From Okeania sp. (GTDB lineage: Bacteria > Cyanobacteriota > Cyanobacteriia > Cyanobacteriales > Microcoleaceae): a stretch of DNA of 32,000 nt. The translations under genes and the position numbers were made by a program. The stretch's first letter is position 1. Every line of letters begins with the position of its first letter. Shown in pieces: positions 11-31,743 of the stretch. Under the pieces are notes generated by a model. That model made no database searches. It saw only the letters and a list, made by a program, of their open reading frames with translations, and was not told the DNA's origin. Location of the stretch: contig NZ_JAYKGW010000047.1 of NCBI RefSeq assembly GCF_035285525.1, positions 8,149-40,148 on the forward strand, in the 5' to 3' direction.

Positions 11-157
11 ATGGATCGTGGAAAAATTGTGGCTATTATTACTGGAGCTATTTCTATAGGTTTAGCGATCGCTTATTTAATTCTTGTGCAATTATTAGAC
101 TTGCGAGGAGCGGAAATGATACCTGCTCCAACTTCGATATTACCTTTGATTTTTTAA
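11..157 (+). CDS. hypothetical small membrane protein (48 aa)
   Basis: ATG at 11, TAA at 155-157. The product is MDRGKIVAIITGAISIGLAIAYLILVQLLDLRGAEMIPAPTSILPLIF with one clear hydrophobic helix. It is below the 60-aa cutoff of the ORF track. The overlapping minus ORF 54..236 is low complexity. Confidence 0.35.
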   Translation: MDRGKIVAIITGAISIGLAIAYLILVQLLDLRGAEMIPAPTSILPLIF

Positions 158-255
158 GGCAAAGATACTTTTTTTTAAGTAGTGATATTTTTATTGTTTC
201 TTTCTCCTTTTGAGGAGTTAAACTAAAAATAATCACTACTTATTTATCATTAAAT

Positions 256-843
256 TTAATTTTTTTGTTCAATAAAAATCATTCGGGTTCGGATCGGAAT
301 ACCTTGACTTGAAGAAACCCAACCTATAATAAAATAATCTTCAATAGCATTTTTAATTACTATTTTTGAATGGTCGTAAACTGGAACAATAAACTTTTTC
401 ATATATTCTTCTGTCATTTCATCAAGACTAATTAAAATAGCTTTACGGGCAATTCGATAAATATGTTTAATTGCTGTTTCAGCATCTTCAACAAAATGCA
501 ATGAACTTAAACAAAAAACCAAATCGTAGGATTGGGAATCAATTTCTGCCAAAGCAGTTTCTATTGGTTTATGAATAGTTTTATAACCTCTTTTAGCTGC
601 ATATTCCAACATATTAGCTGAAATATCAATACCTGTATATTCAAAATCTCCCTGTAATAATTCACTTAGTAGTCCAGTTCCACAAGCAATATCCAAAATA
701 CTACCTTCATTATCATTATTGTGTTGCTGGAAAATTTTCAATGCTTTACTGTGAAGATTTGCATTAGACTTGCTCTTAGCAACATCATCATATTTGATAG
801 CGTAATTATCATAAAATTCTTCAGCAGAAATTTTGTTCGACAT
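256..843 (-). CDS. class I SAM-dependent methyltransferase
   Basis: 195-aa ORF with SAM-binding motif I (ILDIACGTGLLS) followed by YTGIDIS. Size and layout are typical of small-molecule methyltransferases. Confidence 0.85.
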   Translation of the reverse strand: MSNKISAEEFYDNYAIKYDDVAKSKSNANLHSKALKIFQQHNNDNEGSILDIACGTGLLSELLQGDFEYTGIDISANMLEYAAKRGYKTIHKPIETALAEIDSQSYDLVFCLSSLHFVEDAETAIKHIYRIARKAILISLDEMTEEYMKKFIVPVYDHSKIVIKNAIEDYFIIGWVSSSQGIPIRTRMIFIEQKN

Positions 844-1253
844 AGTTACTAATTCAAAATCAACCTAAATTTATACTTTAATAATATAACTCTCTTGCTA
901 AATAAAATCTGACAAAAATACCATAACTAACCGAAAAATTGTGTATAAGTACCTGGACAGAATTAATTGTGCATTTTTGATGGCTATATCGTCATAAAGA
1001 TATCAAAGGATCGACAATATTTAAGACATACAAATAATTTTGTCTACCTACTTAAAACCTCCCCTTTCAAGGAGATAAAAAAATAAACTTCAGTATTTCA
1101 AGCCTCTGGGAACAACTACGAGATACTGATAACTGATAAGTGAGTTGTAGGGGTTTGGTCTCCAAACCCAAGCAAATTTATAATCTCAATAATAGACATC
1201 TCCAAAAATGAAAATTAAAATCAATTATCTGACAGCAATCATCTATTCTTTCT

Positions 1254-8037: not shown

Positions 8038-9090
8038 ATGGTAACAACCACAATGGACAATCTTGTTAGCTCGTATAAGGAGGAATTAATATCAGACAGT
8101 ATTTCTATTGGCATTGACAACGGCAACGGACGGATCAAATCCAAATCTAGTAAAGGTGTAGAGGTTCGGATTAAATCATTAATCCACTATTTAGATGATG
8201 AGCAAGAAATAACAGATGGCGGTCAAGAGTCCGTGTTTGTTGAATATGTAGTAGGTCCCCGCACTGACTTGTGTGGCAAAAGGTTCGTAGTAGGTCAACA
8301 AGCTTACCAGTTCGATCCGGTTGGAGTGCTATCAACTTCAGATGATAGAGAAGGTAAAAGCAAGTTTGCTTTAGAGCTAACCCTAGCTGCAATAGCAGCC
8401 AGTATCACAATGGATTATACGGATGTAGGGATCGTATCAAGTGTACATGATCTTGCAGTCTTGAATGATTTGAAGTCTAAAGTTAATGGAGAACATACAG
8501 TCAAGCTGAATAATCAAATCAGAAAAGTAAATCTTGACTTAAAAGCTGTGAAAACAGAAGGTGTGGGAGCTTATGCTAGCTTGTTGCAGACCAAAAAATG
8601 CAGCAAAGAATCCCAGACAGTTTTGCTCGACCTTGGTTATGGAACAGTCATAGTTTCTGTTTATTCCAACGGCGCTTTCAAACAAATATTGCGATTTCCA
8701 GATCTGGGTGTTAAGTCTCTATATCAACGCATTGCTAATAATTTAGATTTGCGCAAACAGCTAAAACGTAACGGCGATATGCAGCTTATTCAAAAAGCTG
8801 TAGAATGCGGTGATTTTGTCTATGGCAACAATAAGATTAGTGAATTTTCCATTGCTGAAATTTACAATCAGGAATTGAGAATATGGGTCAAAAACTCACT
8901 GGTAAAGGTATTAGGCAAGATTGATAGCTATTTAGATGGCGCTGAGTTTTTGTTTGCTATTGGTGGCGGTGCTAAACTACCAAAAATCTCTCCCTGGCTT
9001 GAAAAAAAAGGTTTTGAGACCATCGAAGATTCCGAGTTTATCAATGCTCGTGGGTTACTGGCGATCGCACAAAGAGAGGCTAAAAAATGA
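8038..9090 (+). CDS. ParM/StbA-family actin-like ATPase
   Basis: Actin-fold motifs occur in order: IGIDNGNGRIK (phosphate 1), LLDLGYGTVIVS (phosphate 2) and FAIGGGAKL (adenosine). The ORF is open from the TTG at 8014. ATG candidates are at 8038 and 8053. Confidence 0.8.
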   Translation: MVTTTMDNLVSSYKEELISDSISIGIDNGNGRIKSKSSKGVEVRIKSLIHYLDDEQEITDGGQESVFVEYVVGPRTDLCGKRFVVGQQAYQFDPVGVLSTSDDREGKSKFALELTLAAIAASITMDYTDVGIVSSVHDLAVLNDLKSKVNGEHTVKLNNQIRKVNLDLKAVKTEGVGAYASLLQTKKCSKESQTVLLDLGYGTVIVSVYSNGAFKQILRFPDLGVKSLYQRIANNLDLRKQLKRNGDMQLIQKAVECGDFVYGNNKISEFSIAEIYNQELRIWVKNSLVKVLGKIDSYLDGAEFLFAIGGGAKLPKISPWLEKKGFETIEDSEFINARGLLAIAQREAKK

Positions 9091-9326
9091 AAAAAAATTG
9101 GGCAAGTAGGAAAGTAGTGATCGCGCCTCGCCATATACCCAACTTGGAAAGGATTGCCCTAGAGAACCAGTTTGAAAGTCTCTCGGAGACCATAGATTGG
9201 GTATTGACTGACTGGCATCGGTGGGTTAACGGATACAACACTCCCAACTTCAATCACATTAGCAACCCAGTAGAAAATACTGCTCCTGTTGTTGAGGAGG
9301 ATGATGATTTACTAGCGGATTTATAG
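9087..9326 (+). CDS. small ParR-like adaptor candidate (RHH-like N-terminus, acidic C-terminal tail)
   Basis: 79-aa ORF overlapping the ParM-like stop by ATGA (translational coupling). RKVVIAPRHIPNLERIALENQFESLSETIDWVL fits a strand-helix-helix pattern. The C-terminus is EEDDDLLADL. Confidence 0.5.
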   Translation: MKKNWASRKVVIAPRHIPNLERIALENQFESLSETIDWVLTDWHRWVNGYNTPNFNHISNPVENTAPVVEEDDDLLADL

Positions 9327-9530
9327 ATGAAAATTAACTTTCAATTATATTGATCTGCCAATCATATTTTCCAATGTACATCCACACATCAAATACTTGA
9401 ACACAGAAAAACTTTTGTAGACGCTTATAGAACCGAACTTACTTGAGTATAAGATGAGAATGCAGTAGCTATTTCTGCAAGGTTGATAGTTTTCAGATCA
9501 TGTCCGTTGAAAATAGTTTGGCAAGAAAAT

Positions 9531-9564
9531 GCTGACTGTTTCTTTTAGTTAAATAACAGTCAGC
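9531..9564 (-). terminator. hairpin downstream of psbY (candidate intrinsic terminator)
   Basis: GCTGACTGTT (9531-9540) pairs with AACAGTCAGC (9555-9564) around a 14-nt loop. On the minus strand it lies about 30 nt after the psbY stop and is followed by ATTTTCTT. Confidence 0.4.
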
Positions 9565-9595
9565 ACTTAGACAAAAAAATATATTGTACTTAATT

Positions 9596-9724
9596 TTAAG
9601 CTTCTTCTTTATTTAGGAAATTTTGCAGTTGTTGGAGAGCCATAACACCAATATTGAAAACAGCCCAACCAGCAGCAGCAATTATAGGAAATAGAACGAT
9701 TAACAAGCGAAAGTCAAAATCCAT
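9596..9724 (-). CDS. psbY: photosystem II protein Y
   Basis: 42-aa minus-strand ORF MDFDFRLLIVLFPIIAAAGWAVFNIGVMALQQLQNFLNKEEA, preceded by GAGGAG. The AAGWAVFNIG core and single TM helix match my recollection of cyanobacterial PsbY. It is absent from the ORF track because it is shorter than 60 aa. Confidence 0.8.
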   Translation of the reverse strand: MDFDFRLLIVLFPIIAAAGWAVFNIGVMALQQLQNFLNKEEA

Positions 9725-10109
9725 TTTTTTTCTCCTCAAGATTTAAAAGCATTTTTCTGTATTTTATAATTTAGCGCAATTTTAATCTTATGTTAAGCTT
9801 TCTCATTAAAAAATTTTCACATCAAATCCACTTGCTTTTAAATTTTATGAGAAACCAGGTTTATAGGAAGTAGGTTTCTTATGGTCGGGCATTTAATATC
9901 AAACCCGGTAGCATCGGTATAATTCAAGCTCTGTAGGGGTTTGGTCTCCAAACCCTATACAAACACTGAAAATTATGTAATTATTGATACAGTATATTTT
10001 GGGAAAATGAGTTAATGGGGAAATATTGTAGTGCGGGCATCTTGCCCGCGATGGGTTTACCTCATCACAATAGGAAGCGTTATATTTATTCAAATCAAAT
10101 TGAAATTTC

Positions 10110-12062: not shown

Positions 12063-12500
12063 ATGCACCATGTTTCGATTCGGACTGGTAATATTCATCG
12101 AGCGATCGCTTTCTATGAAAAGTTAGGTTTTATAGTTTGTCAACGCTTTACTACAGGGTATACTTTAGCCTGTTGGATGGAAGGATTAAATGGTATAATT
12201 GAACTAATTCAAATTCCTGAACCTAAACCTGCACCTGATGCTTTTGGGGATGAAAATTATGTTGGATATTATCATATATCATTTGATTTGACTGAAATTG
12301 TTGCAGATTTACCTAGTTGGTTAAATTCTTTAAAACAACAGTTTGATTTAGCGGTTATAGAACAATCAGAAGTTTTTCAACCATTAAAAATTTTGTTAGA
12401 ACCTACCCAACAAATAATTGGAAATAATGTTTATGAAGTTACCTTTATTGCGGATAGTGATGGTTTACCTTTAGAGTTTATTAGGAAGTTAAATCCCTAA
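12063..12500 (+). CDS. VOC (glyoxalase/bleomycin resistance/dioxygenase) family protein
   Basis: 145-aa ORF. The N-terminal HHVSIRTGNIHRAIAFYEKLGF is the classic VOC beta-alpha-beta start, with a second half-site at YYHISFDL. Confidence 0.75.
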   Translation: MHHVSIRTGNIHRAIAFYEKLGFIVCQRFTTGYTLACWMEGLNGIIELIQIPEPKPAPDAFGDENYVGYYHISFDLTEIVADLPSWLNSLKQQFDLAVIEQSEVFQPLKILLEPTQQIIGNNVYEVTFIADSDGLPLEFIRKLNP

Positions 12501-12799
12501 GTTTTTGTTGAAGGAAGGCAGAATTTAGAAGGGGAATAATGAGGTAAGAATATAATTGTTTTCATCTATCCTAATTCTATATCAACTAATAAATTTCTTC
12601 TGCACGACTACTTAAATATCTAATTTTTGGTATATTTTAGCTGAAAATAAAAAAACTGAAACTCTTACCTCGTCTCAGTTAAGTGTTCCCACCTTCTCTG
12701 TTCCCTGTTACCTAAAAGATGATACAATTTCTGATTAAAAATGCCTTAAAATATTACTGTGTAAATTTTTTTAATTTATTCAGCAAACTCTAATTAATT

Positions 12800-20730: not shown

Positions 20731-21678
20731 TCAGACTTGAACTATATCCACGCGATCGCCTACGGTTAAACCTAATTCTATTGCTCTACCACCTCTCAAC
20801 TCAATCACCCGATCGACAGGAATATCTGGTCCATAAGTAGGGCAAGGTTCAGTTTCACAGGGAGGCAAATTAGAAAAAATCGCCTGTATTTCCCCATTCC
20901 TCAGAAACACCATATCTAAATTAATAAATACATTTCTCATCCAAAAATTCACCGTGCGAGGAGGAGCGATAGAAAATAACATTCCCCGCTCGTCGGGCAA
21001 CTCAGTTCTAAACATCAAACCAACGGCTTGCTCTAACGGAGTTTGCGCCACCTCCAAATTAACAACTTGACCAGAAAAATTTGCCTGTGCTGAAATTGGT
21101 AACATTTGCCCTAACTCCACTTCACCGAACAATGAACTAAAATTTGATTCTTCAAGATTTGTCACTCCTAATAAAACTGCCAAATATTCTCCTGTTACTC
21201 CATCTTGAATAATAATATTATCCTCAGCAGGCAAAATATTCAACTCACTAAATTGTAACCCTCCAGTTAGAATTAAGCGATCGCTACCATTCCGAAAATC
21301 AGTAATTACATCTGCATCTGCCAAATTTACCCCACCAGTAGAGAATAAATCTTCACGTCTACCAATAGCAAACAAATCGTCTCCTTCGCCCCCAGTCATT
21401 GTATCCGCACCCAAGTTCCCAATTAACCAGTCTGCTCCCAAATCTCCAGAAATAAAGTCATTTCCTTGCCCACCAAAAATAGTATCGGCATCTTGCCCAC
21501 CAAAAATAGTATCATCCCCCTGATTACCTTGGAGAACATCGGTTCCTTGGTTGCCAAAAATTTGGTCATTACCCCCGAAACTTTGAACAATATCTTTACT
21601 TGCTAAAGCAGGGATAATATCACTATCGGGAGTGCCACTGAGAAAGTCAATATTTAGTGTGCCTTGAATATTAGTCAT
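20731..21678 (-). CDS. RTX-type calcium-binding repeat protein fused to a C-terminal DUF192 domain
   Basis: The N-terminal half has GGxGxD nonapeptide runs (FGGNDQIFGNQGTDVLQGNQGDDTIFGGQDADTIFGGQGNDFISGDLGAD...). The C-terminal part reads AQTPLEQAVGLMFRTELPDERGMLFSI...FWMRNVFINLDMVFL...PPCETEPCPTY...VIELRGG...GDRV, which is the DUF192 signature. Confidence 0.75.
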   Translation of the reverse strand: MTNIQGTLNIDFLSGTPDSDIIPALASKDIVQSFGGNDQIFGNQGTDVLQGNQGDDTIFGGQDADTIFGGQGNDFISGDLGADWLIGNLGADTMTGGEGDDLFAIGRREDLFSTGGVNLADADVITDFRNGSDRLILTGGLQFSELNILPAEDNIIIQDGVTGEYLAVLLGVTNLEESNFSSLFGEVELGQMLPISAQANFSGQVVNLEVAQTPLEQAVGLMFRTELPDERGMLFSIAPPRTVNFWMRNVFINLDMVFLRNGEIQAIFSNLPPCETEPCPTYGPDIPVDRVIELRGGRAIELGLTVGDRVDIVQV

Positions 21679-22388: not shown

Positions 22389-22503
22389 TATTTTGAATTT
22401 TCTAGCTTGTGCAAGTCGTCAAACTGTCACATTAACTTAGAAAACTTTCAAAACCTAATTTAACTTTAGTAATTAAGTAGCATTTACTGAAAATATAATT
22501 ATT

Positions 22504-22773
22504 ATGAATAATGAACAAACGTCCATAATCTTTAAAGTCAAAATCCACTATATAAACGGAGAAACTCAAACTTTTGAAGTCTGCGGACAAGGATGGGATA
22601 ATGTTGATATTGCCAGTCGTCTTTTTCAAATACAAAAATCTGATAAATTAATTTTGCAATTAACAGATAATAGTCTTCAAGTTATTCCCTACAGCAGCAT
22701 TTTATATTTAACAGTTGACCCTGCACCTCCTAAACTACCAAAAGATATAATTACTGGAGCGACTTTATTATAA
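22504..22773 (+). CDS. hypothetical protein (89 aa)
   Basis: Its composition is balanced compared with the overlapping minus-strand ORF. No family is recognised. It is bracketed by two MITE copies. Confidence 0.45.
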   Translation: MNNEQTSIIFKVKIHYINGETQTFEVCGQGWDNVDIASRLFQIQKSDKLILQLTDNSLQVIPYSSILYLTVDPAPPKLPKDIITGATLL

Positions 22774-22940
22774 GTAAGCATTTAGCTATCAGCCATTAGT
22801 AGTCAGCTCTCAGCAAAAAGAGTAATTTTAAATGGAATATAAACTTTAAAACCAGCTTTTGTACTTAAGATTTAATTTTGGCTCAATGAGTCAAGCTTTT
22901 ATTTAAAATTAAAAGCAATAGCTGATAACTGATTGCTTAC
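22774..22940. mobile_element. MITE-like element, GTAAGCATT family
   Basis: Ends are GTAAGCATTTAGCTATCAGCCATTAGTAGTCAGC / GCTGATAACTGATTGCTTAC. It starts at the nucleotide right after the TAA of ORF 22504..22773. Confidence 0.7.
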
Positions 22941-22950
22941 ATAATTTTGA

Positions 22951-23066
22951 GTAACACAGCCTGGAAGGCTGTAATAACCAGGATACTAAACAGATAATTA
23001 CTAGAGCAAATTTATCATACAGTAACACAGCCTTCCAGGCTGTAACAACCTGGAAGGTTGTGTTAC
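22951..23066. repeat. cluster of GTAACA-hairpin repeats
   Basis: GTAACACAGCCTGGAAGGCTGTAATAACC ... GTAACACAGCCTTCCAGGCTGTAACAACCTGGAAGGTTGTGTTAC. Related units occur at 13311-13365 and 23360-23378. Confidence 0.7.
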
Positions 23067-23434
23067 AAATTTACCCTAATTAAATTAATTATTTTTCCCA
23101 ATTTTTACCGAAAAATTTTGGTAATTACGTCTCCTTTTTTAAGAAGATAAAAAAAAGAAAATTCCGTATTTCAAGCCTATTTATTCTAAGAGGTAATGAT
23201 AACTTTTAACGCAGTTCTTCCGGAAGAGGCTAACTGTTAAGGTAGTTCCTCCGGAGGAGGCTAAATGATAACTGAAATGACGCACTACTTTTCTGGAGAT
23301 TACTATCTAAAATGAAAGAGATAAATCAATACTCAGATAAATTATTTATATTTAGTAATACAGGCTTCCAACCTGTAAAAAGCAGGATGCTTCTCTTACA
23401 TACTTATTGAGGCTAAAGGAGATTATATTTCAAA

Positions 23435-23989
23435 ATGAAAGAGATAAATCAATACTCAGATAAATTATTTCTAGTCCGAAATTTACTCGATAATGAACAA
23501 TGCGATAAATACATTGAAATGGCTGAATCAATTGGATTTGAAGAAGCAAGTATTACAACAAACTTCGGTTCTGTTATGGATAAAAGTATTAGAAATAACG
23601 ATCGGGTAATTTGGGATGATGAAAAGTTAGCAAAAGAATTATTTGAAACAACAAAATCTTACATTAAAAATCCTTGCAAAGGATTATATTGTACTGGTTT
23701 AAATGAGAGATTTAGGTTTTATAAATATTCTCCTGGTCAAAAATTTGGTTGGCATTCTGATGGTTATTATGAAAGAGAAAATGGCGAACGTTCGAGATGG
23801 ACTTTATTGTTTTATCTAAATGATGGTTATGAAGGTGGTGCAACGAAATTTAGAACTACAGAAGTAAGGGGAAATAAGGGAGATGCTTTGTTTTTTTTCC
23901 ATCGTCAATTACATTGTGGTGACATGGTAAAGTCAGGCATTAAATATGTTTTACGGACAGATATTATGTATGAAGCAAAGGTTAAATAA
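23435..23989 (+). CDS. 2OG-Fe(II) oxygenase (prolyl 4-hydroxylase-like)
   Basis: 184-aa ORF. It has the HxD...H facial triad candidates (GWHSDGYY and QLHCG), a downstream basic residue (KYVLRTD) and double-stranded beta-helix size. Confidence 0.8.
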   Translation: MKEINQYSDKLFLVRNLLDNEQCDKYIEMAESIGFEEASITTNFGSVMDKSIRNNDRVIWDDEKLAKELFETTKSYIKNPCKGLYCTGLNERFRFYKYSPGQKFGWHSDGYYERENGERSRWTLLFYLNDGYEGGATKFRTTEVRGNKGDALFFFHRQLHCGDMVKSGIKYVLRTDIMYEAKVK

Positions 23990-24028
23990 TTAATAATTAA
24001 TAATTAATAATTAATAATTAATTATTAA
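23987..24028. repeat. STRR heptamer array (TAATAAT)
   Basis: It starts in the stop codon of the oxygenase gene and runs into the MITE at 24032. Confidence 0.9.
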
Positions 24029-24031
24029 CTA

Positions 24032-24190
24032 GACAGTACAAAGTTATATGAATAATTATTGCTAGCTAAGGCTTTTAGCTATCTAAAAGTTAGAAACTTT
24101 CTCTTGATAACTTTAGGTGCTGTAAGCCTATACCAGTAATACTTTTATCCTTAAAAGCAAATATTTTTTTTGGAGAACTTTGCACTCTCC
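24032..24190. mobile_element. about 160-bp MITE-like element (inverted copy of 18417-18577)
   Basis: Ends are GACAGTACAAAGTT / AACTTTGCACTCTCC, flanked on both sides by TAATAAT arrays. Confidence 0.65.
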
Positions 24191-24216
24191 AGTAATTAAT
24201 AATTAATAATTAAATT

Positions 24217-24318
24217 TTGACTGACGCAGAGAAACTGGGTTTTTAGGATAAATCGTTATTTTTAACAATAAATATTAACGAAAAAAAAACGATTTATGGG
24301 TTCATTTGCGTAAGTCTT
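24217..24318. repeat. small palindromic dispersed repeat, one end eroded
   Basis: TTGACTGACGCAGAGAAACTGGGTTT...TTCATTTGCGTAAGTCTT is the reverse complement relative of 17143-17243. Confidence 0.75.
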
Positions 24319-24406
24319 GTAATAACTAAATTTTGCTAGGGCGGGTATCTTGCCCGCGTTTGTTTACCTCATCAAAGTAGAATCTAATGTATCTTTTCCT
24401 AATACT

Positions 24407-25714
24407 ATGAAAACATCATCTTTTCTAAATTTAACTATTGGATTATCTCTAATAATTAATTTAATTGCGGCAATAATAATCAGCTCTTCATTACAATATG
24501 CAGATTTAATTCACGTTATTACTATTGGTTCAATTATTTTATTAAGTTGGTTTCTGTTACCGAAAATTTTGCCTCTTCAAAAGAGTACATATGGCGCAAA
24601 TAATGGTCTATATGATTTTGGTCTGGTTCCTAGTTTCTTATCGCTTGGCTTATTGCATGAGGTATTTTATGGATATCCTAAAAGTGCTCCTAGCTACTTT
24701 AAAAAAATATGTCTATTTACGCCATTTTTAGCAATACTTTTCTGGTTATATAGTTTAGGTTTCACTGCTTTTCCTTTAGTATTAAAAATCATTTGGTTAT
24801 TGCTAACAATACCTATGATTTTTATCCTTCATCTTGGTGCTGATAAAGTAAGTTATGCAATGTGGATACCGACTTTTCTGTTGCCAATATTACAAGCGAT
24901 CGCTCTGATAACAGGTATTATAAGATTTTTTCTTTTAGATATATCAACTAAGGTAGAAATAGGGCAAAGTCTGTTAATCGTAATTGGTTTTGCCATATTA
25001 ACAGTCCTATGGGCAGGAAGTCTGGAAATAATATCAAATGCTCAGAGAAATAAAAGTAAATTATTGTTAGATAATCCTAGAGTTTGTATTTTTGTCAGAG
25101 TTATTAATCCTGAAAATCAAGACTGCAAAGTAAATTCTACTGCTCTAAATAAACAGCGTGGATTTTTACATGAATATGCAAACAGCCAAGGATATAAACT
25201 AGATCGTATTCAATATACTGTAGATAATGGTTATACAGAAGAAACAGATGAATTAAAACAATATCGCCAAGCATTTATATCTTTATTGGAAAATCCAAAT
25301 TATAATATATTTCTGGTAGAAAAAGAAGAAAGTTTAGCTAGGTTTGGCATTGAAGAAGCTAAACGTATCCTCAAAGAAAATGGCAAATATCTTGAAGTAT
25401 TTAATCAAGAAATTGAAAAATCAAGACAAATAGAAAATAAGCAGATTTTTACTATTTCTATAATATTGCACACAATGGTTATTATCGGCGGATTAATAGG
25501 AGGTTGGCGGTTAAATTTGTTCATTTATTTTTATGCTCCTTTGGTATTCTTCTGGATTCTTTGGCTATTTTTAGTCATAATATTTACTATGCTAGTTATT
25601 ATGCTATTAAAAGATAACAAAGATAACCCTTACCCTTACCCTATATTTGTGGCTTCTTTAATTCCCTTATTAATATTACTAGCATTCGGTTTCAGAGTAT
25701 TTATCAACAGTTAA
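24407..25714 (+). CDS. polytopic membrane protein with a central degenerate (catalytically dead) IS607-type serine-recombinase domain
   Basis: The ORF is open from the TTG at 24350, but that codon lies in a GC-rich dispersed repeat, so the ATG at 24407 (MKTSSFLNL...) is preferred. About 6-7 hydrophobic helices precede the soluble core, which spans track residues 243-352 (nt 25076-25405). The core reads RVCIFVRVINPENQ...ALNKQRGFLHEYANSQGYKL...VDNGYTEE...FLVEKEESLARFGIEEAKRILKENGKYLEVFN. Three hydrophobic helices follow it. Confidence 0.7.
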   Translation: MKTSSFLNLTIGLSLIINLIAAIIISSSLQYADLIHVITIGSIILLSWFLLPKILPLQKSTYGANNGLYDFGLVPSFLSLGLLHEVFYGYPKSAPSYFKKICLFTPFLAILFWLYSLGFTAFPLVLKIIWLLLTIPMIFILHLGADKVSYAMWIPTFLLPILQAIALITGIIRFFLLDISTKVEIGQSLLIVIGFAILTVLWAGSLEIISNAQRNKSKLLLDNPRVCIFVRVINPENQDCKVNSTALNKQRGFLHEYANSQGYKLDRIQYTVDNGYTEETDELKQYRQAFISLLENPNYNIFLVEKEESLARFGIEEAKRILKENGKYLEVFNQEIEKSRQIENKQIFTISIILHTMVIIGGLIGGWRLNLFIYFYAPLVFFWILWLFLVIIFTMLVIMLLKDNKDNPYPYPIFVASLIPLLILLAFGFRVFINS

Positions 25715-25727
25715 CAATTAATTCAAA

Positions 25728-25894
25728 ATGGATAATCAATCGTAAGAAAAATTATTAAATCAACTAATAAATCCCCTAAAAGCTAAAGACTGGAAAACGG
25801 CTAATGAGATTATTTTTTGTCTTTTTTTAGAACTATTCCTGAAGATATTAGTAACTATAGATGAATTCATAATCAGGATTTACATAAGATTAAA
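25728..25894 (+). pseudogene. dead duplicate of the 5' end of the GUN4/receiver gene
   Basis: ATGGATAATCAATCGTAAGAAAAATTATTAAAT...GGAAAACGGCTAATGAGATTA...CCTGAAGATATTAG...ATCAGGATTTACATAAGATTAAA aligns base for base with 26346-26513. It has a stop at codon 6 and indels. Confidence 0.7.
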
Positions 25895-26093
25895 TTAGTT
25901 AACTATTCAGATTTTAGATACCTTCTATACAAAGTTATTACCCTACTCCCATATTTCAAAAAAATTAGTAAAAACTTATCAAATTGGTATTAAGTGTATT
26001 GCTTTTTATAAAAGTTTTAATTTTCGGATTTACCATGACTATTAAAACCAAGTTTCCTTGACTAAACTACTTCAATAAAAAATATTATTTAAC

Positions 26094-26339
26094 ATGATTT
26101 ATCCTGAGCCTCGTATTACTTTAATTGTTTTCTCACTTTTAGGTTTAATTGCTTTTTATTTTCCTTTGATATTCTGGATTATTTGCCTATCGTTAATAAT
26201 AATATTTACTATACTACTTATTGCAATACTCATATATTGTGGTCTGGCTCACTTTATATTTCTCTTTCCTCTGATTCCCTTATTAAGATTGCTAGCATTC
26301 GGTTTCATAATATTTATCTTGTCAACAGTTAACAACTAA
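26094..26339 (+). CDS. 81-aa three-helix membrane protein, paralog of the C-terminus of 24407..25714
   Basis: FPLIFWIICLSLIIIFTILLIAIL...LIPLLRLLAFGFIIFILSTVNN parallels APLVFFWILWLFLVIIFTMLVIML...LIPLLILLAFGFRVFINS. The DNA homology continues through the stop into the next gene. Confidence 0.55.
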   Translation: MIYPEPRITLIVFSLLGLIAFYFPLIFWIICLSLIIIFTILLIAILIYCGLAHFIFLFPLIPLLRLLAFGFIIFILSTVNN

Positions 26340-26345
26340 TTCATC

Positions 26346-29300
26346 ATGAATAATCAATCATCAGAAAAATTATTAAATAAACTAAGAAATCGCCTAGAAG
26401 CTAAAGATTGGAAAACGGCTAATGAGATTACTTTTTGTCTTTTTTTTGAAACTATTCCTGAAGATATTAGCAACCCTGGATGGATTCATTATCAGGATTT
26501 ACATAAGATTAAAGATGAAGTTTTAAAAGAAAGCGATCGCCTCTGGGTATATCATTCTGAAGGACGTTTTGGTTTTAGTGTTCAATGGCAAATTTTCTAT
26601 CAATTATATCTAGAATTATATCTGGAAGGAAAGCATAGGGATTATATGATGTTAGAAGAAACTTTTGCAGAAAAAGTTGGTCGTATTAGAGCTGCTGGTT
26701 ATGATATTAAAGAAGTTAATTTTAGTTTAGATTTTCCTCAAGGATATTTACCTTGGTTTCACTGGTATGATTCTCAAAACTATAAATTTCGTAGTGGCAT
26801 AACGGGAGGTGGTGGTGTGGGTTGGGAAGCAATTTTTTATGTAGCAGAATTATTAGAAAGAAGTGGTGCAATACCTCCAGAAGGAAAAGTATGGAACCGT
26901 CAAGAAATAATAGAAAAAATAAAAGAAGGTAATCCTAATTTTAGTCGAGGTAATTTAGTAGGAATTGATTTACAAGGGTTAGATTTATCTAATGCAAATT
27001 TTCTCGGTGCAGATTTAAGTCAAAGTAATCTTGCTAAAGCAAAATTAAATAAAACTAACTTTTATTCTGCTAATCTCTATGAAGCTAATTTATCTCAAAT
27101 AGAAGGAATCAATACTTATTTCAGAAAGGCTAAATTGGAAGGTACAATTTTTTGGCAAGCTCAACTTGTTAATGTTGACTTGACTAAAGTTTCTGCATTT
27201 AGAGCAATATTTGATGAAAGTAAATGGGAAAATGTGAATGCAACTGAGGGAGACTTTTTTGCAGCAAATTTTTATTGGGTTATCTGCCAAAATACATCTT
27301 TTTCCCAAGCCGATATTTCCTATACAAGTTGGCAAGAAGCAATTTTAAAAGACTGTAATTTTGCAGAGGTAGTTAAAAATAAAGCTAGACTCAAAATGAC
27401 TAAATTTGTCGGCAAAAATTGGAATAGTCAATTAGACAAGTTAACAACTTCTAAGACAAAGACTTTAGCAAATCTTCCTTTAGCAAAATATAAACCTATA
27501 GATAAGAGATCGCCCACTATTTTTATTATTGATGATTCAATTACAGTTAGAGAATTATTATCTATGACTTTTACAAAAGCGGGATATAAAGTTGTTTTAG
27601 CTAGAGATGGGCAAGATGCTTGGGAACAATTAAAAGTTGGTTTAGTTTGTGATTTTATTCTTTCAAATATCGAAATGCCTCGGATGGATGGTATCGAGTT
27701 TTTATCAAGAGTTAAAAAAGATGAAAAACTAAAAGATATTCCCTTTGCACTTTTGACGAGTAGAGGTGCAAATAGAATGCGTACTAATAACTGGTGGGAT
27801 GAACGTATTGTTGCTCGCTTTACTAAACCTTATATTGAGCAAAATTTATTAGAAACTGTTGCTAATACATTAAAAATATTGCCAGAAAATAAGCAACAAA
27901 CTTTAGCCAAAGAAATTACAAATAAACGACCTACTATTTTAATTGTTGATGATTCTATTGTAGCCAGAGAATTATTAACTATGACTTTTACCAAAGCTGG
28001 ATATGATGTTATTAAAGCCAAAGATGGTAAAGATGCTTTAGATAGATTAAATACTGGCGTAGTTTGCGATTTTATTTTTTCAAATATTGAAATGCCTAAG
28101 ATGGATGGTTTCCAATTTTTGGCAGAAGTTAAGCAAGATGAAAAACTCAAAAATATTCCTTTTGCATTTATATCTAGTACAAATAGAAATAAAAATAGAA
28201 TCAGTAGTAGCTCTTGGAATCAAAGTATTGTTGCTCACTTTACTAAACCTTTTATAGAGGAACAATTATTAGAAACAGTTACTAAAGCATTAAATAATTT
28301 GCCAGAAAATAAGGAAGCAACTTTAGCCAAAGAAATTATAGATAAACGATCTACCATTTTTATTGTTAATTATTCAAATACTGTCAGAAAATTATTAAGG
28401 ATAGCTTTGACAAAAGCCGGATATAAAATTGTTGAAGCTAGAGATGGGCGAGATGCTTGGGAACAACTAAAAGCAGGTTTAATTTGCCATTTTATTTTCT
28501 GTGATACGGAAATGCCTCGGATGGATGGTTTTGAGTTTTTATCAAGAATTAAACAAGATGAAAAGCTCAACAATATTCCCCTGGCATTTCTCAGTAGTCA
28601 AGCTAAAAGGAGAAAAGATATTAGCTTAGAATTAGGTGCGGTTCCTCACTTTACTAAACCTTTTATAGAGGAACAATTATTAGAAACAGTTACTAAGACA
28701 TTAAATAATTTTCCAGAAAATCAGGAACAAACTTTAGCCAAAGAAATTACAGATAAACGACCTACTATTTTAATTGTTCATTATTCAAATACTGTCAGAA
28801 AATTATTAAGGATAGCTTTGACAAAAGCCGGATATAAAATTGTTGAAGCTAGAGATGGGGGAGATGCTTGGGAACAACTAAAAGCAGGTTTAATTTGCCA
28901 TTTTATTTTCTGTGATACGGAAATGCCTCGGATGGATGGTTTTGAGTTTTTATCAAGAATTAAACAATATGAAAAGCTCAACAATATTCCCCTGGCATTT
29001 CTCAGTAGTCAAGGTAAAAGGAGAAAAGATATTAGTTTAAAATTAGGTGCTATTGCTCACTTTACTATACCTTTTATAGAGGAACAATTATTAGAAACAG
29101 TTGCTAATACATTAAGTAATTTGCCAGAAAATCAAGATGAAACTTTAGCCGAAAACTGGAAAAATAAACCACCGACTATTTTAATTATTGATTCTTCAAT
29201 TACAGTCAGAAAATTATTTGTAGGATATAAAACAGCCAGAAAATTATTTGTAGGATATAAAATTGTTGAAGCTAGAGATGGGGGAGATGCTTGGGAACAA

Positions 29301-30578
29301 TTACAAGCAGGTTTAAATTGTGATTTTATTTTCTGCGATACCGAAATGCCGCGAATGGATGGTTTCGAGTTTTTATCAAGAATTAAACAAGATGAAAAGC
29401 TCAAAAATATTCCCCTGGCATTTCTCAGCAGTCAAGTTAACAGGAAAAAAGATATTAGCTTAGAATTAGGTGCGGTTGCTCACTTTACTAAACCTTTTAT
29501 AGAGAAAGATTTATTAGAAACAGTTACTAAGACATTAAATAATTTGCCAGAAAATCAAGATGAAACTTTAGCCGAAAAATGGAAAAATAAAACGCCGACT
29601 ATTTTAATTATTGGTACTTCTTTTGATAAACGGCAAGAATTAAGTCACTCTTTTATCAAAGCAGGTTATCAAGTATTCAGAGATATCCTTGGTACTGATA
29701 GTTGGCAAATATTACAAAGCAACTTAAATAATATTGATTTTATTCTATCCGATCTAGGTAATTTAGAATTATTAGAAAAAGTCAAACAGGATGAAGCGTT
29801 ACATAATATTCCTTTGGCAATTATCCACACTAAAGAAATCCTTCCTTTTATTCGAGAACAATTTGATATAGTTGATTACTTTACTTATCCTTATGTAGAA
29901 CAAAAATTGTTAAAATCTATTGCTAAAATTATAGGTAGAGAAGCAGAATATTTAAGCTTTTTGGAAAACTCAATAGAAAGAGAAAAGGAAAATATAAATT
30001 CTGGTAAACTGAGACAATCTCAAACTCGTTTTTTTGTCGTTGGATTAAATTTAGAACAACGGAAACAATTAGTAACTTTGTTCAGATTTAAACCAAACTT
30101 ATTCTGCCATTTTTTTCCAGAAAATCAACTTCTTAATTCTGGTGCAGATAAATTTAATACTCAATTATTAATATCTCAACTACAAGAAAGAATTATAAAT
30201 AATATTAGCCCTCCATCTTACTTCAATAATTTTTATAATTTATCAAACACTTATAACTGTACTTTCATCCCAGATAATTTACTAAATTATTTTGCCGAAA
30301 TTTCTGATAATTCATCTTCTTGTTCCCTATACCTTCTGATTCAGATTAATGTACTTAAAAGTTTAAGCAAACTAAACTTGAAAGAAGCTTTACCTCAATT
30401 TTCTACTATTGTTATTGATGATAAAAATAAACTTGATATTATTTCTTCTGATTTCTTAAAACAACTGCAACAAAATTGGAATACAAAAGCCTATATTACC
30501 AACCTTAAAGCTCCAGATATTTTGGAAACATTTGCCTCTGTAGTTAATGGTGAAGCACCAATCGAAAAAAAAAATTAA
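26346..30578 (+). CDS. 1410-aa GUN4 domain / pentapeptide-repeat / six tandem receiver (REC) domain protein
   Basis: GUN4-like block at aa 8-175 (WKTANEIT...DLHKIKDEVLKESDRLWVYHSEGRFGFSVQWQIF). Pentapeptide repeats at aa 197-345 (NLVGIDLQGLDLSNANFLGADLSQSNLAKAKLNKTNFYSANLYEANLSQ...). REC-like units start at aa 390, 529, 669, 806, 943 and 1084, each matching PTILI(V/I)DDS..VR.LL...KAGY.V..A.DG.DAW..L......F....EMPRMDGFEFL...K.DEKL..IP.A.LSS.....FTKPF. The uncharacterised tail at aa 1199-1410 has faint REC-like blocks. Confidence 0.9.
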   Translation: MNNQSSEKLLNKLRNRLEAKDWKTANEITFCLFFETIPEDISNPGWIHYQDLHKIKDEVLKESDRLWVYHSEGRFGFSVQWQIFYQLYLELYLEGKHRDYMMLEETFAEKVGRIRAAGYDIKEVNFSLDFPQGYLPWFHWYDSQNYKFRSGITGGGGVGWEAIFYVAELLERSGAIPPEGKVWNRQEIIEKIKEGNPNFSRGNLVGIDLQGLDLSNANFLGADLSQSNLAKAKLNKTNFYSANLYEANLSQIEGINTYFRKAKLEGTIFWQAQLVNVDLTKVSAFRAIFDESKWENVNATEGDFFAANFYWVICQNTSFSQADISYTSWQEAILKDCNFAEVVKNKARLKMTKFVGKNWNSQLDKLTTSKTKTLANLPLAKYKPIDKRSPTIFIIDDSITVRELLSMTFTKAGYKVVLARDGQDAWEQLKVGLVCDFILSNIEMPRMDGIEFLSRVKKDEKLKDIPFALLTSRGANRMRTNNWWDERIVARFTKPYIEQNLLETVANTLKILPENKQQTLAKEITNKRPTILIVDDSIVARELLTMTFTKAGYDVIKAKDGKDALDRLNTGVVCDFIFSNIEMPKMDGFQFLAEVKQDEKLKNIPFAFISSTNRNKNRISSSSWNQSIVAHFTKPFIEEQLLETVTKALNNLPENKEATLAKEIIDKRSTIFIVNYSNTVRKLLRIALTKAGYKIVEARDGRDAWEQLKAGLICHFIFCDTEMPRMDGFEFLSRIKQDEKLNNIPLAFLSSQAKRRKDISLELGAVPHFTKPFIEEQLLETVTKTLNNFPENQEQTLAKEITDKRPTILIVHYSNTVRKLLRIALTKAGYKIVEARDGGDAWEQLKAGLICHFIFCDTEMPRMDGFEFLSRIKQYEKLNNIPLAFLSSQGKRRKDISLKLGAIAHFTIPFIEEQLLETVANTLSNLPENQDETLAENWKNKPPTILIIDSSITVRKLFVGYKTARKLFVGYKIVEARDGGDAWEQLQAGLNCDFIFCDTEMPRMDGFEFLSRIKQDEKLKNIPLAFLSSQVNRKKDISLELGAVAHFTKPFIEKDLLETVTKTLNNLPENQDETLAEKWKNKTPTILIIGTSFDKRQELSHSFIKAGYQVFRDILGTDSWQILQSNLNNIDFILSDLGNLELLEKVKQDEALHNIPLAIIHTKEILPFIREQFDIVDYFTYPYVEQKLLKSIAKIIGREAEYLSFLENSIEREKENINSGKLRQSQTRFFVVGLNLEQRKQLVTLFRFKPNLFCHFFPENQLLNSGADKFNTQLLISQLQERIINNISPPSYFNNFYNLSNTYNCTFIPDNLLNYFAEISDNSSSCSLYLLIQINVLKSLSKLNLKEALPQFSTIVIDDKNKLDIISSDFLKQLQQNWNTKAYITNLKAPDILETFASVVNGEAPIEKKN
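27513..29939 (+). repeat. six tandem coding repeats of 411-423 bp (the REC units)
   Basis: Units start at 27513, 27930, 28350, 28761, 29172 and 29595. 28371-28620 and 28782-29031 differ at only about 3 positions by eye. Confidence 0.9.
29202..29261 (+). repeat. in-frame 30-bp tandem duplication inside REC unit 5
   Basis: ACAGTCAGAAAATTATTTGTAGGATATAAA is followed by ACAGCCAGAAAATTATTTGTAGGATATAAA (1 mismatch). It encodes RKLFVGYKTA + RKLFVGYKIV. Confidence 0.95.
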
Positions 30579-30603
30579 AGATCAAAAATTAAAATAATTA
30601 AAT

Positions 30604-30813
30604 GCAGAATTAACAAAAATATTTTTAGATTTCGACAAAAGTAAAAAACTAATCGAGAAAGAAAAAATCAAAGAAATTAGCGATGAATAATTAATCCAAA
30701 TATTCTTAGATTTTGATAAAGAAGCTAAAAATACTTCTGAGAGTCAAAAAACAATTGAAAAGGAAATTAGCGATGCAGAACTAATCAAAATCCTCTTAGA
30801 TTTTAATAAATAA
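30604..30813 (+). repeat. degenerate tandem repeat (about 90 bp x 2.4) with coding-like periodicity
   Basis: One frame reads AELTKIFLDFDKSKKLIEKEKIKEISDE*LIQIFLDFDKEAKNTSESQKTIEKEISDAELIKILLDFNK*. There is no start codon and an internal stop. Confidence 0.6.
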
Positions 30814-31209
30814 GCTAAAAATACTTTTTTCTGTAAAATCAAGACAGCAGACTTTCGTAGTAATATTTAATTATAGCTCAATTAATAAACCTTTGATCCG
30901 AGACTAAACACAATAGCTGATGCCTAACAGCTAAATACCTAATTAATGAAAACCGATCATATATTTTATCGAATTTTCCAAGAATTACCTGAAACCTTCT
31001 TACGGTTCCCGAAAAATCAGTTGTAGGAATACTTACCACAAAATTCCAATAATTATCGTTTTGATTCAGTAGAATTAAAACAGACTTCCTTTAGAATAGA
31101 CGGGGTCTTTTTATCCCAAGATACTGACAAAAAAGTATACAGCTTCCCATTTTAAAAGTATCAAAAGAATAAGATTCTGTATATTATTTTTATGACTTCA
31201 GTGAAAGTT

Positions 31210-31249
31210 ACTGATAACTAATAGCTGATAACTGATAACTGATAACTGA
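31210..31249. repeat. STRR heptamer array (CTGATAA)
   Basis: CTGATAACTAATAGCTGATAACTGATAACTGATAACTGAA lies inside the disrupted Rpn-family gene. Confidence 0.9.
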
Positions 31250-31520
31250 AAAGGTGTGTTATGATTATCTTTAAAAGTCGTAGTTTTGAACCAACAGACA
31301 GAAACAGGGAATCTGTACAACATTTTTTAGATACTCCCCTCATCAAGCGCATCTATTTGAATGAATTAAAAGTGAGTGAAACAACTCCCTTAGGTGTACA
31401 AATCGTTCAATTAGTTGTAGAAAAAAAGAAACAATTTTTGGAGAGAGCAACCTTATTAATTAATCAAGTAAGACAACAATTTACCAATGAAAATGATCGG
31501 TTGCAATTACTTAACTTATT

Positions 31521-31743
31521 GGTAAGCATTTCCTCCGGAATGCTGCGCAAACAGCCGTCAGCCATCAGCTATCAGCTATTTTTTTTGGTTTTAAATGTAA
31601 ATCTCATCTTTAAGACTATACTTTATAAACATTTCTCTTGATATAAAACTTGATAATGGATAGCTTTAAAAGCAGAGTCTTGTTCCTGTTAACGAAGTTC
31701 CGACCTAGGAGGCTAGCTGAAGTGCTAATAGCTGAATGCTTCC
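31521..31743. mobile_element. MITE-like element, GTAAGCATT family, inserted in the Rpn-family pseudogene
   Basis: Ends are GGTAAGCATTTCCTCCGGAATGCTGCGCAAACAGCCGTCAGCCATCAGCTATCAGC / GCTGAAGTGCTAATAGCTGAATGCTTCC. The interior matches 11620-11937. Confidence 0.75.

Follow-up and report, generated by a model that had tools for sequence, protein, structure and literature searches.

The window analysed here is a 32,000-nucleotide (nt) stretch of DNA from the cyanobacterium Okeania sp. (Oscillatoriales, not Nostocales; contig NZ_JAYKGW010000047.1, positions 8,149 to 40,148), in which a gene for a 435-residue polytopic membrane protein is followed on the same strand by a giant gene whose 1410-residue product joins a GUN4 domain, pentapeptide repeats, tandem receiver units and a C-terminal domain (Table 1). 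The original prediction, made from the letters of the window, was that these two genes form a functionally linked, co-transcribed module. Comparison with related loci supports a functional link between the membrane protein and GUN4 genes, the membrane gene lying near GUN4 genes in three diverged lineages. Each gene of the pair also occurs without the other, however, and the unit is a loose cassette of four to five genes (window ~22400–30817), not a tight two-gene operon.

Conserved neighbourhood of the membrane gene

Related loci came from an Okeania-like metagenome-assembled genome (MAG; L005), Okeania SIO2C9 (L004), Nodularia spumigena (L001/L002), a metagenome (L006-8) and two read assemblies (L013 and L014, the latter of the same lineage as L005). 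In the window, as at L005, L014, L001/L002, L006-8 and L013, no more than about 1.3 kb separates the membrane gene from a GUN4 gene. The order in L005 is a gene for a protein of ~90 residues, a 2-oxoglutarate (2OG)-Fe(II) oxygenase gene, a 223-residue GUN4 gene on the opposite strand, the membrane gene, a 680-nt spacer, a 1175-residue orthologue of the giant gene and a serine hydroxymethyltransferase gene; L014 carries the same GUN4 gene, split by a frameshift and divergent from the membrane gene. In Nodularia the membrane gene is convergent (4 nt) with a 245-residue GUN4 gene, followed by the ~90-residue gene and then by a BchH-type Mg-chelatase H gene. L006-8 has a STALD and GUN4 fragment, the membrane gene, ~90- and 135-residue genes on the opposite strand and a 686-residue GUN4-pentapeptide-receiver-C-terminal domain gene, and L013 has the membrane gene, the ~90-residue gene on the opposite strand and a STALD-GUN4-pentapeptide gene. 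L004 retains the ~90-residue, oxygenase and membrane genes; both GUN4 genes are gone.

The linkage spans three lineages (the Okeania group, Nodularia and a metagenomic one) and six distinct contexts, with membrane proteins 50–72% identical to that of the window. Assuming ~6000 genes and about ten GUN4 genes per genome, we infer, as an estimate and not a computed statistic, that a GUN4 gene would lie within two genes by chance in <1% of cases per lineage, so that three independent cases would be far beyond chance. Synteny between the window and L004/L005 starts at 22400 and ends at ~30817, with unrelated flanks, which defines a discrete cassette of about 8.4 kb. The membrane gene occurs without a giant orthologue in Nodularia and L004. 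Substitution rate ratios (nonsynonymous to synonymous, dN/dS) against L005 are 0.2–0.66 for the cassette genes (0.88 for receiver unit 6), and so the cassette is under purifying selection.

The proposal of a two-gene unit did not survive this comparison: the ~90-residue gene stays with the membrane gene more faithfully than any other, and a lipoprotein-type GUN4 gene is a second GUN4 partner that was lost in the window strain. Nor does co-transcription hold as a conserved property; it is unlikely because the spacers between membrane and giant genes are long (631 nt in the window and, as above, 680 nt in L005), orientation varies and opposite-strand genes intervene in L006 and L013. Linkage is kept in three lineages; order, orientation and spacing are not. 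No terminator-like site was found in the 631-nt window spacer, in a scan where such sites are at chance level. A terminator-like GC-rich hairpin with a T-run lies at 24339–24357, 50 nt 5' of the membrane gene ATG; it suggests separate transcription of the membrane and oxygenase genes, in a region where terminator-like sites occur at chance frequency. Signal scans of the region also gave fewer promoter-like sites than in shuffles.

At every locus with enough flank, the ~90-residue gene is found no more than about 2.8 kb from the membrane gene, of which it is the most constant neighbour. The homologues of its product (L004, L005, Nodularia L001, L006 and L013) are 48–83% identical, the window copy has a dN/dS of 0.26 against L005, and the protein has no match in Pfam, NCBIfam, PADLOC or PDB. 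The oxygenase gene is syntenic in L004 and L005 (85–87% amino acid identity; dN/dS 0.22) and belongs to the cassette in the Okeania lineage only. The 223–245-residue GUN4 proteins of L005, L014 and Nodularia have a basic, hydrophobic N-terminus ending in a lipobox-like L/I-x-G/A-C; their GUN4 domain is complete (E=7.5e-24, with 85 bits in Nodularia). They are predicted to be exported lipoproteins, and an exported GUN4 would be unusual. Between the oxygenase and membrane genes, where L005 has this gene, the window holds no trace of it and AT-rich repeats instead. The L014 copy (130–861, minus strand) is split into open reading frames (ORFs) of 95 and 126 residues, by a frameshift or an assembly error.

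Mg-chelatase genes accompany two versions of the system. In Nodularia, the BchH-type gene (L001 12672–16421, minus strand; a paralogue of Mg-chelatase H, TIGR02025, 1622 bits) is co-directional with, and upstream of, the ~90-residue and lipoprotein-GUN4 genes. In Sphaerospermopsis, a ChlI gene (L011 647–1765, minus strand; TIGR02030, 591 bits) lies 3.7 kb upstream of a stand-alone GUN4-receiver gene. These neighbours weakly favour a link to pigment metabolism; that GUN4 binds tetrapyrroles and activates Mg-chelatase is established (Larkin 2003 and Davison 2005, cited in PMC7159879).

Copies elsewhere are scarce. A scan of a genome collection re-found L004 and L005 only, metagenome scans with profiles of the ~90-residue and membrane proteins found nothing, and neither a viral-contig scan nor a tblastn search of plasmids found cassette copies on phage or plasmid records.

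Table 1. Features of the cassette and its margins in the window. Receiver residues are those at CheY positions 12/13/57/87/109.
Feature	Position	Strand	Evidence or remark
Gene, 89-residue soluble protein	22504..22773	+	Annotated MEB3340158, identical to Okeania sp. protein
2OG-Fe(II) oxygenase gene, 184 residues	23435..23989	+	Pfam 2OG-FeII_Oxy_3, E=1.5e-10
Dispersed repeat resembling a miniature inverted-repeat transposable element (MITE)	24000..24222	.	AT-rich heptamer run and 26-nt inverted repeat; repeat analysis
Membrane protein gene, 435 residues	24407..25714	+	ORF; 100% identical to MEB3340160, Okeania sp.
Putatively dead IS607-type serine-recombinase catalytic domain, residues 225–338 of membrane protein	25079..25420	+	NCBIfam, profile searches, PDB
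C-terminal extension of membrane protein, 64 residues, two transmembrane helices	25520..25714	+	Within junction repeat copy 1; window-specific
Dead copy of giant gene 5' end	25728..25894	+	Completes copy 1 of the junction repeat; codon 6 is a stop, and the frame is broken
81-residue hydrophobic ORF, probably not a gene	26094..26339	+	Last ~63 codons are a paralogue of the extension
Giant gene, 1410 residues	26346..30578	+	Annotated 'response regulator' MEB3340161, identical to Okeania sp. protein
GUN4 core domain, residues 9–138 of giant protein	26370..26759	+	Pfam GUN4, E=5e-18
Pentapeptide-repeat region, approximately residues 185–350	26898..27395	+	Pfam Pentapeptide 7e-18, Pentapeptide_4 7e-11
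Six tandem receiver units	27516..29999	+	Tandem Repeats Finder, repeat families, alignment to CheY
Receiver unit 1	27516..27932	+	DDNTK
Receiver unit 2	27933..28352	+	DDNSK
Receiver unit 3	28353..28763	+	NYDSK
Receiver unit 4	28764..29174	+	HYDSI
Receiver unit 5	29175..29597	+	DSDSK; 10-residue insertion in helix 1
In-frame 30-nt tandem duplication in receiver unit 5	29202..29262	+	Repeat analysis, Tandem Repeats Finder
Receiver unit 6	29598..29999	+	GTDHY; 5-residue deletion in beta3-alpha3 loop
C-terminal domain, residues 1219–1410 of giant protein	30000..30578	+	Conserved in all orthologues
Decayed remnant of C-terminal tail repeats (…ELxKIFLDFD…)	30580..30817	+	Three motif copies 3' of the giant stop; still in frame in L005 orthologue
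Decayed DUF2887 gene	30946..31641	+	Internal stop and frame break; right boundary, outside cassette

Anatomy of the membrane and giant proteins

The ATG of the membrane gene agrees with the MKT... start of its orthologues, and the family is very rare, comprising only 7 clusters among 5.8 billion proteins. Hydropathy places transmembrane (TM) helices at residues 7–25, 34–52, 101–120, 123–141, 154–172 and 188–206, with TM7 at 347–365; a 140-residue soluble segment separates TM6 from TM7, and two further helices are present in the window protein only. Loop charges (five K/R in loop 53–100, and QRNKSK after TM6) suggest, by the positive-inside rule, that the soluble segment faces the cytoplasm. 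Against L005, dN/dS is 0.49 for the whole protein and 0.38 for the domain in this segment.

That domain matches the NCBIfam model transpos_IS607 (NF033518) at E=2.8e-7, with a score of 30 bits that is far below the family cut-off of 110. A profile search of the PDB found ISC1926 TnpA (6dgc, E=0.0019) and also MJ0014, IS1535 TnpA and TnpX, and a filter-only HMMER profile search of 1.84 billion representatives gave twelve remote matches (E 1.7e-7 to 9e-4); all ten of those tested are Pfam Resolvase (PF00239) proteins of ~200 residues, one of them with a MerR-type helix-turn-helix (HTH). None of the scores for this homology reaches a curated family threshold. The catalytic fold and the motifs R-V-x, Y-A-x-x-x-G-Y and L-x-R-F-G are shared with IS607 TnpA (PDB 6DGC, 6DGB; NF033518), with two insertions of 3 and 7 residues relative to the IS607 catalytic domain. 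In all seven members of the family, the nucleophile motif R-V-S-S reads R-V-[IV]-N, the serine being replaced by isoleucine or valine. D-R-L-T-R-F-G reads E-x-L-[AS]-R-F-G, in which D-R has become E-[SNHK], the equivalent of R68 is lost and the last arginine alone is kept. The best remote matches combine an HTH with the Resolvase domain in ~200 residues, whereas the membrane protein has no MerR-type HTH and carries its domain between TM6 and TM7: no HTH DNA-binding domain was matched anywhere in the protein, TM7 replaces helix E, and there is no TnpB partner. The recombinase fold proposed for this segment is therefore borne out as IS607-type serine-recombinase homology with the nucleophile serine absent, and by its motifs the soluble core is a catalytically dead serine-recombinase catalytic domain. 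A literature search found no published account of such a dead domain embedded in a membrane protein.

The giant ORF contains no stop in 1410 codons, against about 121 predicted from 30% GC and 57–174 in the other five frames, and so is a maintained gene. The GUN4 head and pentapeptide repeats had been read correctly: Pfam GUN4 (PF05419) scores 66 bits against a cut-off of 29.2, with PDB matches to 7e2r (E=1.2e-8) and Synechocystis GUN4 (1y6i, 3e-6), and Pentapeptide (PF00805) scores 64 bits against 20.2, over tandem A(D/N)LXX repeats. The GUN4 core of the giant N-terminus and of the relatives' lipoprotein is that of GUN4/Ycf53 (Synechocystis Sll0558, PDB 1Y6I; plant GUN4, PDB 7E2R). Unlike GUN4/Ycf53, the cassette GUN4s have no N-terminal helical domain; one form continues into pentapeptide repeats and receivers, the other bears a lipobox, and only the first half of the GUN4 domain aligns with the solved structures. 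Against L005, dN/dS is 0.33 for GUN4, 0.48 for the pentapeptide region and 0.47 for the C-terminal domain. The orthologous proteins have 1175 (L005), 686 (P0009, from L006) and 690 residues (P0008); P0008 and a further orthologue, P0010, are encoded in Sphaerospermopsis MAGs at L011 and L012, respectively.

Response_reg (PF00072) was matched at E=4e-91 (301 bits) in five stretches of the giant protein, and Tandem Repeats Finder reports a period of 411 nt with 5.0 copies and 83% matches at 27516–29613; a sixth, degenerate unit was recognised by alignment. The full D12-D13-D57-T/S87-K109 set is present in none of the six window units. Because each lacks at least one residue of the phosphorylation chemistry, none would be expected, on established receiver chemistry, to be phosphorylated normally. 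The idea of a string of non-phosphorylatable receivers holds for the window in this sense, but the state is derived and belongs to the Okeania lineage: of the four units in the L005 orthologue the first is intact (DDDSK), and the L006 and Sphaerospermopsis (P0008) orthologues have one unit, also intact. Since orthologues keep an intact receiver, the pseudo-receiver array is a young, lineage-specific expansion and decay. Against L005, dN/dS is 0.5–0.66 for units 1–5 and 0.88 for unit 6, and it is 1.25 between units 3 and 4. Neither the cassette nor the gene tables of related loci contain a HisKA or HATPase_c gene; orphan response regulators are common, so that absence of a nearby kinase is weak evidence.

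Pseudo-receivers such as the N-terminal domain of KaiA keep the receiver fold, have lost phospho-acceptor or metal residues and are presumed to act in protein–protein contacts. The N-terminal CheY-like domain of TadZ (PDB 4LDA) offers a comparison of the same kind, with fold kept and residues lost. The window differs from known pseudo-receivers in having six tandem units from recent duplication (83% nt matches) and in having canonical orthologues, so that the residue loss is likewise young and lineage-specific.

The C-terminal domain (~190 residues) is present in all orthologues by alignment and is possibly receiver-like, a lead rather than a result. Its AlphaFold2 model is of low confidence (predicted local distance difference test, pLDDT, 53; predicted template modelling score 0.53) and has a (beta-alpha)5 order with an insert. 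The top Foldseek matches of this model are nearly all CheY-like receivers (VpsT, TadZ, RcsB, DesR, NarL; E 3.5e-3 to 0.05). An hhalign comparison with the receiver units was not significant (probability 0.6%), a sequence-profile search of the PDB gave spurious protein A matches only, and a word-indexed homologue search missed even the giant protein, which the collection contains, so that its blank result reflects limited sensitivity and does not indicate absence.

The orthologues show further variation. In L012 (10001–11479, P0010) and L013 (1763–2881) the GUN4-pentapeptide protein carries an N-terminal insertion of STALD, a SLOG domain of the ThsA type; in P0010 the first 14 residues (MSSPLDGLITELEN) flank the insert on both sides, and in the sister Sphaerospermopsis MAG the gene at this locus is the same but lacks STALD (P0008, L011 5457–7529). 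A small polytopic membrane protein, absent from the window, is encoded convergently and directly 3' of the GUN4-pentapeptide-receiver gene in L006 (14439–14876, minus strand) and L011 (7584–7880, minus strand), the two copies being 57% identical. The 135-residue ORF of L006 (11787–12194, minus strand) has the look of a degenerate receiver (ILILSIGDS…DLILCNF) and has no Pfam match.

The duplicated junction

A piece spanning the end of the membrane gene and the start of the giant gene was said to have been duplicated as a unit, with stop-to-start distances of 6–13 nt, and this was taken as a sign of functional coupling. The duplication exists as described. By local alignment, copy 1 (25520–25894) pairs with copy 2 (26145–26513), at about 73% identity in the part coding for two TM helices and 85–89% in the giant 5' part. 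Each copy comprises ~190 nt for two hydrophobic helices, a stop codon, a spacer to the next ATG and the opening ~167 nt of the giant gene; the spacer measures 13 nt in copy 1 and 6 nt in copy 2. The helices of copy 1 extend the membrane gene in frame, and the giant-gene start after them is dead (MDNQS-stop, with later frame breaks); those of copy 2 make up the end of an 81-residue ORF, which is followed by the live giant gene. The short spacings are therefore real, but each pairs a real gene with a dead fragment or with the 81-residue ORF, and the two real genes are 631 nt apart. The dead 5' fragment is 85% identical to L005 11777–11961.

Copy 1 starts exactly where all orthologues have a stop codon. 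Because the six other family members end there, at GGWxLN, the extension of the membrane protein is specific to the lineage of the window strain, and no homologue of it was found in L004 or L005. The 81-residue ORF matches the extension with 52% identity (tblastn, to 25523–25711), and dN/dS between the two is 1.07, i.e., neutral. Annotation accession numbers run consecutively across this ORF, which has no call by the Prokaryotic Genome Annotation Pipeline, and its exact sequence is absent from the protein collection; it is probably not a gene. With a dead fragment or a neutrally evolving, uncalled ORF on one side of each tight junction, the duplication is not evidence of coupling.

The junction seems best explained as a local rearrangement reading through into T-rich, formerly non-coding DNA. 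A simple tandem duplication of a 618-nt unit is ruled out, as 25895–26144 has no counterpart in copy 2. Weak nucleotide matches and one repeat family prompted a test of whether the 81-residue ORF and extension derive from TM3–5 of the membrane gene; Smith-Waterman scores were not above those of shuffles (z=1.4, 44/500), and the similarity is compositional. A second, independent duplication of the giant 5' end lies upstream of the membrane gene in L006, where a 205-residue ORF (9240–9857) links the closing ~90 residues of STALD to a duplicate of the N-terminal ~105 residues of the 686-residue gene product, 90% identical at the amino acid level to 12337–12657.

Candidate roles and surroundings of the cassette

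Our preferred explanation, to which we give somewhat less than even odds (roughly 45%), is that the locus is a derived copy of a rare, membrane-associated, tetrapyrrole-responsive signalling cassette of filamentous cyanobacteria. This explanation starts from the observed anatomy, homologies, conserved neighbourhood and purifying selection, and proposes for the cassette a ligand, a topology, physical contacts and an output. The core would be the polytopic membrane protein (six TM helices, the dead IS607-type domain and one TM helix) and the ~90-residue soluble protein, joined at each locus by one or two GUN4 partners: an exported, lipoprotein-type protein and a cytoplasmic GUN4-pentapeptide-receiver-C-terminal domain protein. 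GUN4 domains, predicted to face both sides of the membrane, would bind tetrapyrrole, and the membrane protein would serve as a membrane-resident transducer or conduit. Its dead recombinase domain, facing the cytoplasm, may keep its fold for oligomerisation or docking, and the receiver with the receiver-like C-terminal domain could form the output switch. In the window strain, the lipoprotein GUN4 has been lost, the single receiver has been amplified to six tandem units, the membrane–giant junction has been rearranged by a ~370-nt duplication, and the C-terminal tail has decayed. With six units that each lack a phosphorylation residue, the window giant protein could act only as a phosphorylation-independent scaffold or adaptor.

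A bolder version seems improbable to us. It holds that the membrane family domesticated a dead IS607 transposase domain as a cytoplasmic platform and, with the obligatory ~90-residue partner, relays tetrapyrrole information across the membrane, between the exported GUN4 lipoprotein and the cytoplasmic GUN4-receiver protein, into Mg-chelatase or pigment regulation; the Okeania array would then be a phospho-switch made into a multivalent scaffold.

Several observations weigh against a tetrapyrrole-responsive signalling cassette. Operon coupling is not conserved, since order and orientation vary (the genes are convergent in Nodularia) and spacers are long. Okeania SIO2C9 keeps the membrane and ~90-residue genes with no GUN4 gene, and two Sphaerospermopsis MAGs have the giant orthologue without the membrane or ~90-residue genes. 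The dN/dS values of 0.5–0.9 in the receivers and membrane protein indicate relaxed constraint. The BchH context in Nodularia is ambiguous because an exported GUN4 cannot touch a cytoplasmic chelatase, and the proximity of ChlI may be due to chance. An AlphaFold2 model of the whole membrane protein, from a 7-sequence alignment, has a pLDDT of 43 and is unusable beyond the order of secondary structures. Lastly, the STALD fusions and the toxin-antitoxin or integrase neighbours are just as compatible with a conflict system.

Such a conflict system, anti-phage or kin-discriminating, in multicellular cyanobacteria is the main rival, though in our judgement an unlikely one. GUN4 (STALD/SLOG in variants) would be the sensor, the kinase-independent receivers adaptors, and the polytopic membrane protein an effector that harms the membrane once activated. 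GUN4, pentapeptide repeats and kinase-independent receivers are modules of cyanobacterial conflict systems according to Kaur et al. (PMC7159879; PMC8195603), and P0010 and L013 have the ThsA-type STALD domain joined to the N-terminus of the GUN4-pentapeptide protein. The very rare, patchy distribution, the rapid turnover of domains and copy number, the relaxed constraint, and the neighbours at related loci (ParE, SocA/Panacea, integrase, DUF4351) also agree with conflict. However, PADLOC-DB 2.0 gave no system-level match, only domain-level ones (GUN4 and REC parts of PD-T4-6 models, STALD of ThsA), and none at all for the membrane and ~90-residue proteins; no NTPase, protease, nuclease or TIR effector was present at any of the loci, no phage or plasmid copies were found, and Mg-chelatase genes lie nearby in two lineages.

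We also doubt that the pairing is only a historical relic in this strain, that is, a decaying locus whose giant gene and junction ORFs no longer work with the membrane protein. Decay is plain in the dead 5' fragment, the neutral extension and 81-residue ORF (dN/dS 1.07), the decayed tail and the in-frame 30-nt duplication. All receivers have lost key residues, including the first unit, which is intact in L005, dN/dS reaches 0.88 for unit 6 and 1.25 for units 3 versus 4, the lipoprotein GUN4 is lost here and both GUN4 genes are lost in the sister strain L004. On the other side stand the stop-free 1410-codon ORF (~121 stops expected), the intactness of all four cassette genes and dN/dS values of 0.33–0.48 across the GUN4, pentapeptide and C-terminal parts and of 0.38 in the recombinase-like domain; with ORFs intact and dN/dS under 1, function is unlikely to have been lost completely. 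The reading in which the membrane gene belongs to an active IS607-like mobile element, with the junction as its recombination footprint, is close to refuted. The homology of the soluble core to IS607 TnpA, the duplication of the giant 5' end here and independently in L006, and the different flanks of the window and L005 would suit it, but the absence of nucleophile (Ile/Val for Ser in 7/7 members) and DNA-binding domain essentially excludes it. One catalytic arginine, helix E and TnpB are missing too, the domain is embedded between TM helices, IS607 makes no target duplications (PMC6188088), and a repeat of ~370 nt is not a transposition footprint.

The locus resembles known multidomain GUN4 fusions of cyanobacteria (to Ser/Thr kinase, caspase, trypsin or TIR domains; Kaur et al. 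2020, PMC7159879; Zhang et al. 2007, PMC2176072), in which GUN4 is a presumed small-molecule sensor on signalling or adaptor modules. Both are cyanobacteria-specific, occur in filamentous taxa and lie alongside pentapeptide repeats and kinase-independent receivers. The cassette differs in having no NTPase or vWA-MoxR core, and the retrieved literature passages on such proteins make no mention of a GUN4-pentapeptide-receiver(n)-C-terminal domain architecture or of the membrane/~90-residue neighbourhood. None of the domains is new in itself. What appears to be undescribed is a dead IS607 domain embedded in a membrane protein, a GUN4 that is exported, and the cassette in its entirety.

To our knowledge, GUN4 is known almost only as a soluble Mg-chelatase cofactor, and cyanobacterial GUN4 fusions have no assigned role. 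A small conserved cassette with GUN4 apparently on both sides of the membrane, beside one dedicated membrane protein, would offer a testable handle on non-canonical GUN4 function. The locus also combines two evolutionary events rarely seen together: the exaptation of a transposase catalytic domain that lost its nucleophile and became part of a membrane protein, and a recent tandem amplification and inactivation of receivers, for which sister genomes hold the intact ancestor for comparison. The practical weight is modest, the family being very rare.

The module was also described as bounded by MITEs on the left and by a decayed Rpn-family nuclease gene on the right. AT-rich inverted and dispersed repeats are indeed present on the left, and their motif recurs in related loci: a partly palindromic, AT-rich TAATTAATAATTAAT-type motif is scattered in intergenic DNA of the Okeania lineage, at 24000–24222 in the window, 8559–8601 and 18310–18353 in L004, and 2502–2543, 9527–9560 and 11741–11781 in L005. 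On the right, a decayed gene is found, with DUF2887 profile matches in an N-terminal part (30946–31152, with an internal stop; profile positions 1–56, E=1.6e-16) and, in another frame, a C-terminal part (31261–31641; positions 97–183, E=2.9e-17); DUF2887 probably belongs to the Rpn/PD-(D/E)XK group. Searches of the window for Rfam families and tRNA genes were negative. Just beyond the cassette, a gene at 20731–21678 (minus strand) encodes RTX calcium-binding repeats and DUF192 in one protein, and its neighbours are otherwise housekeeping genes (a LarC-type nickel insertion protein and Sua5/TsaC).

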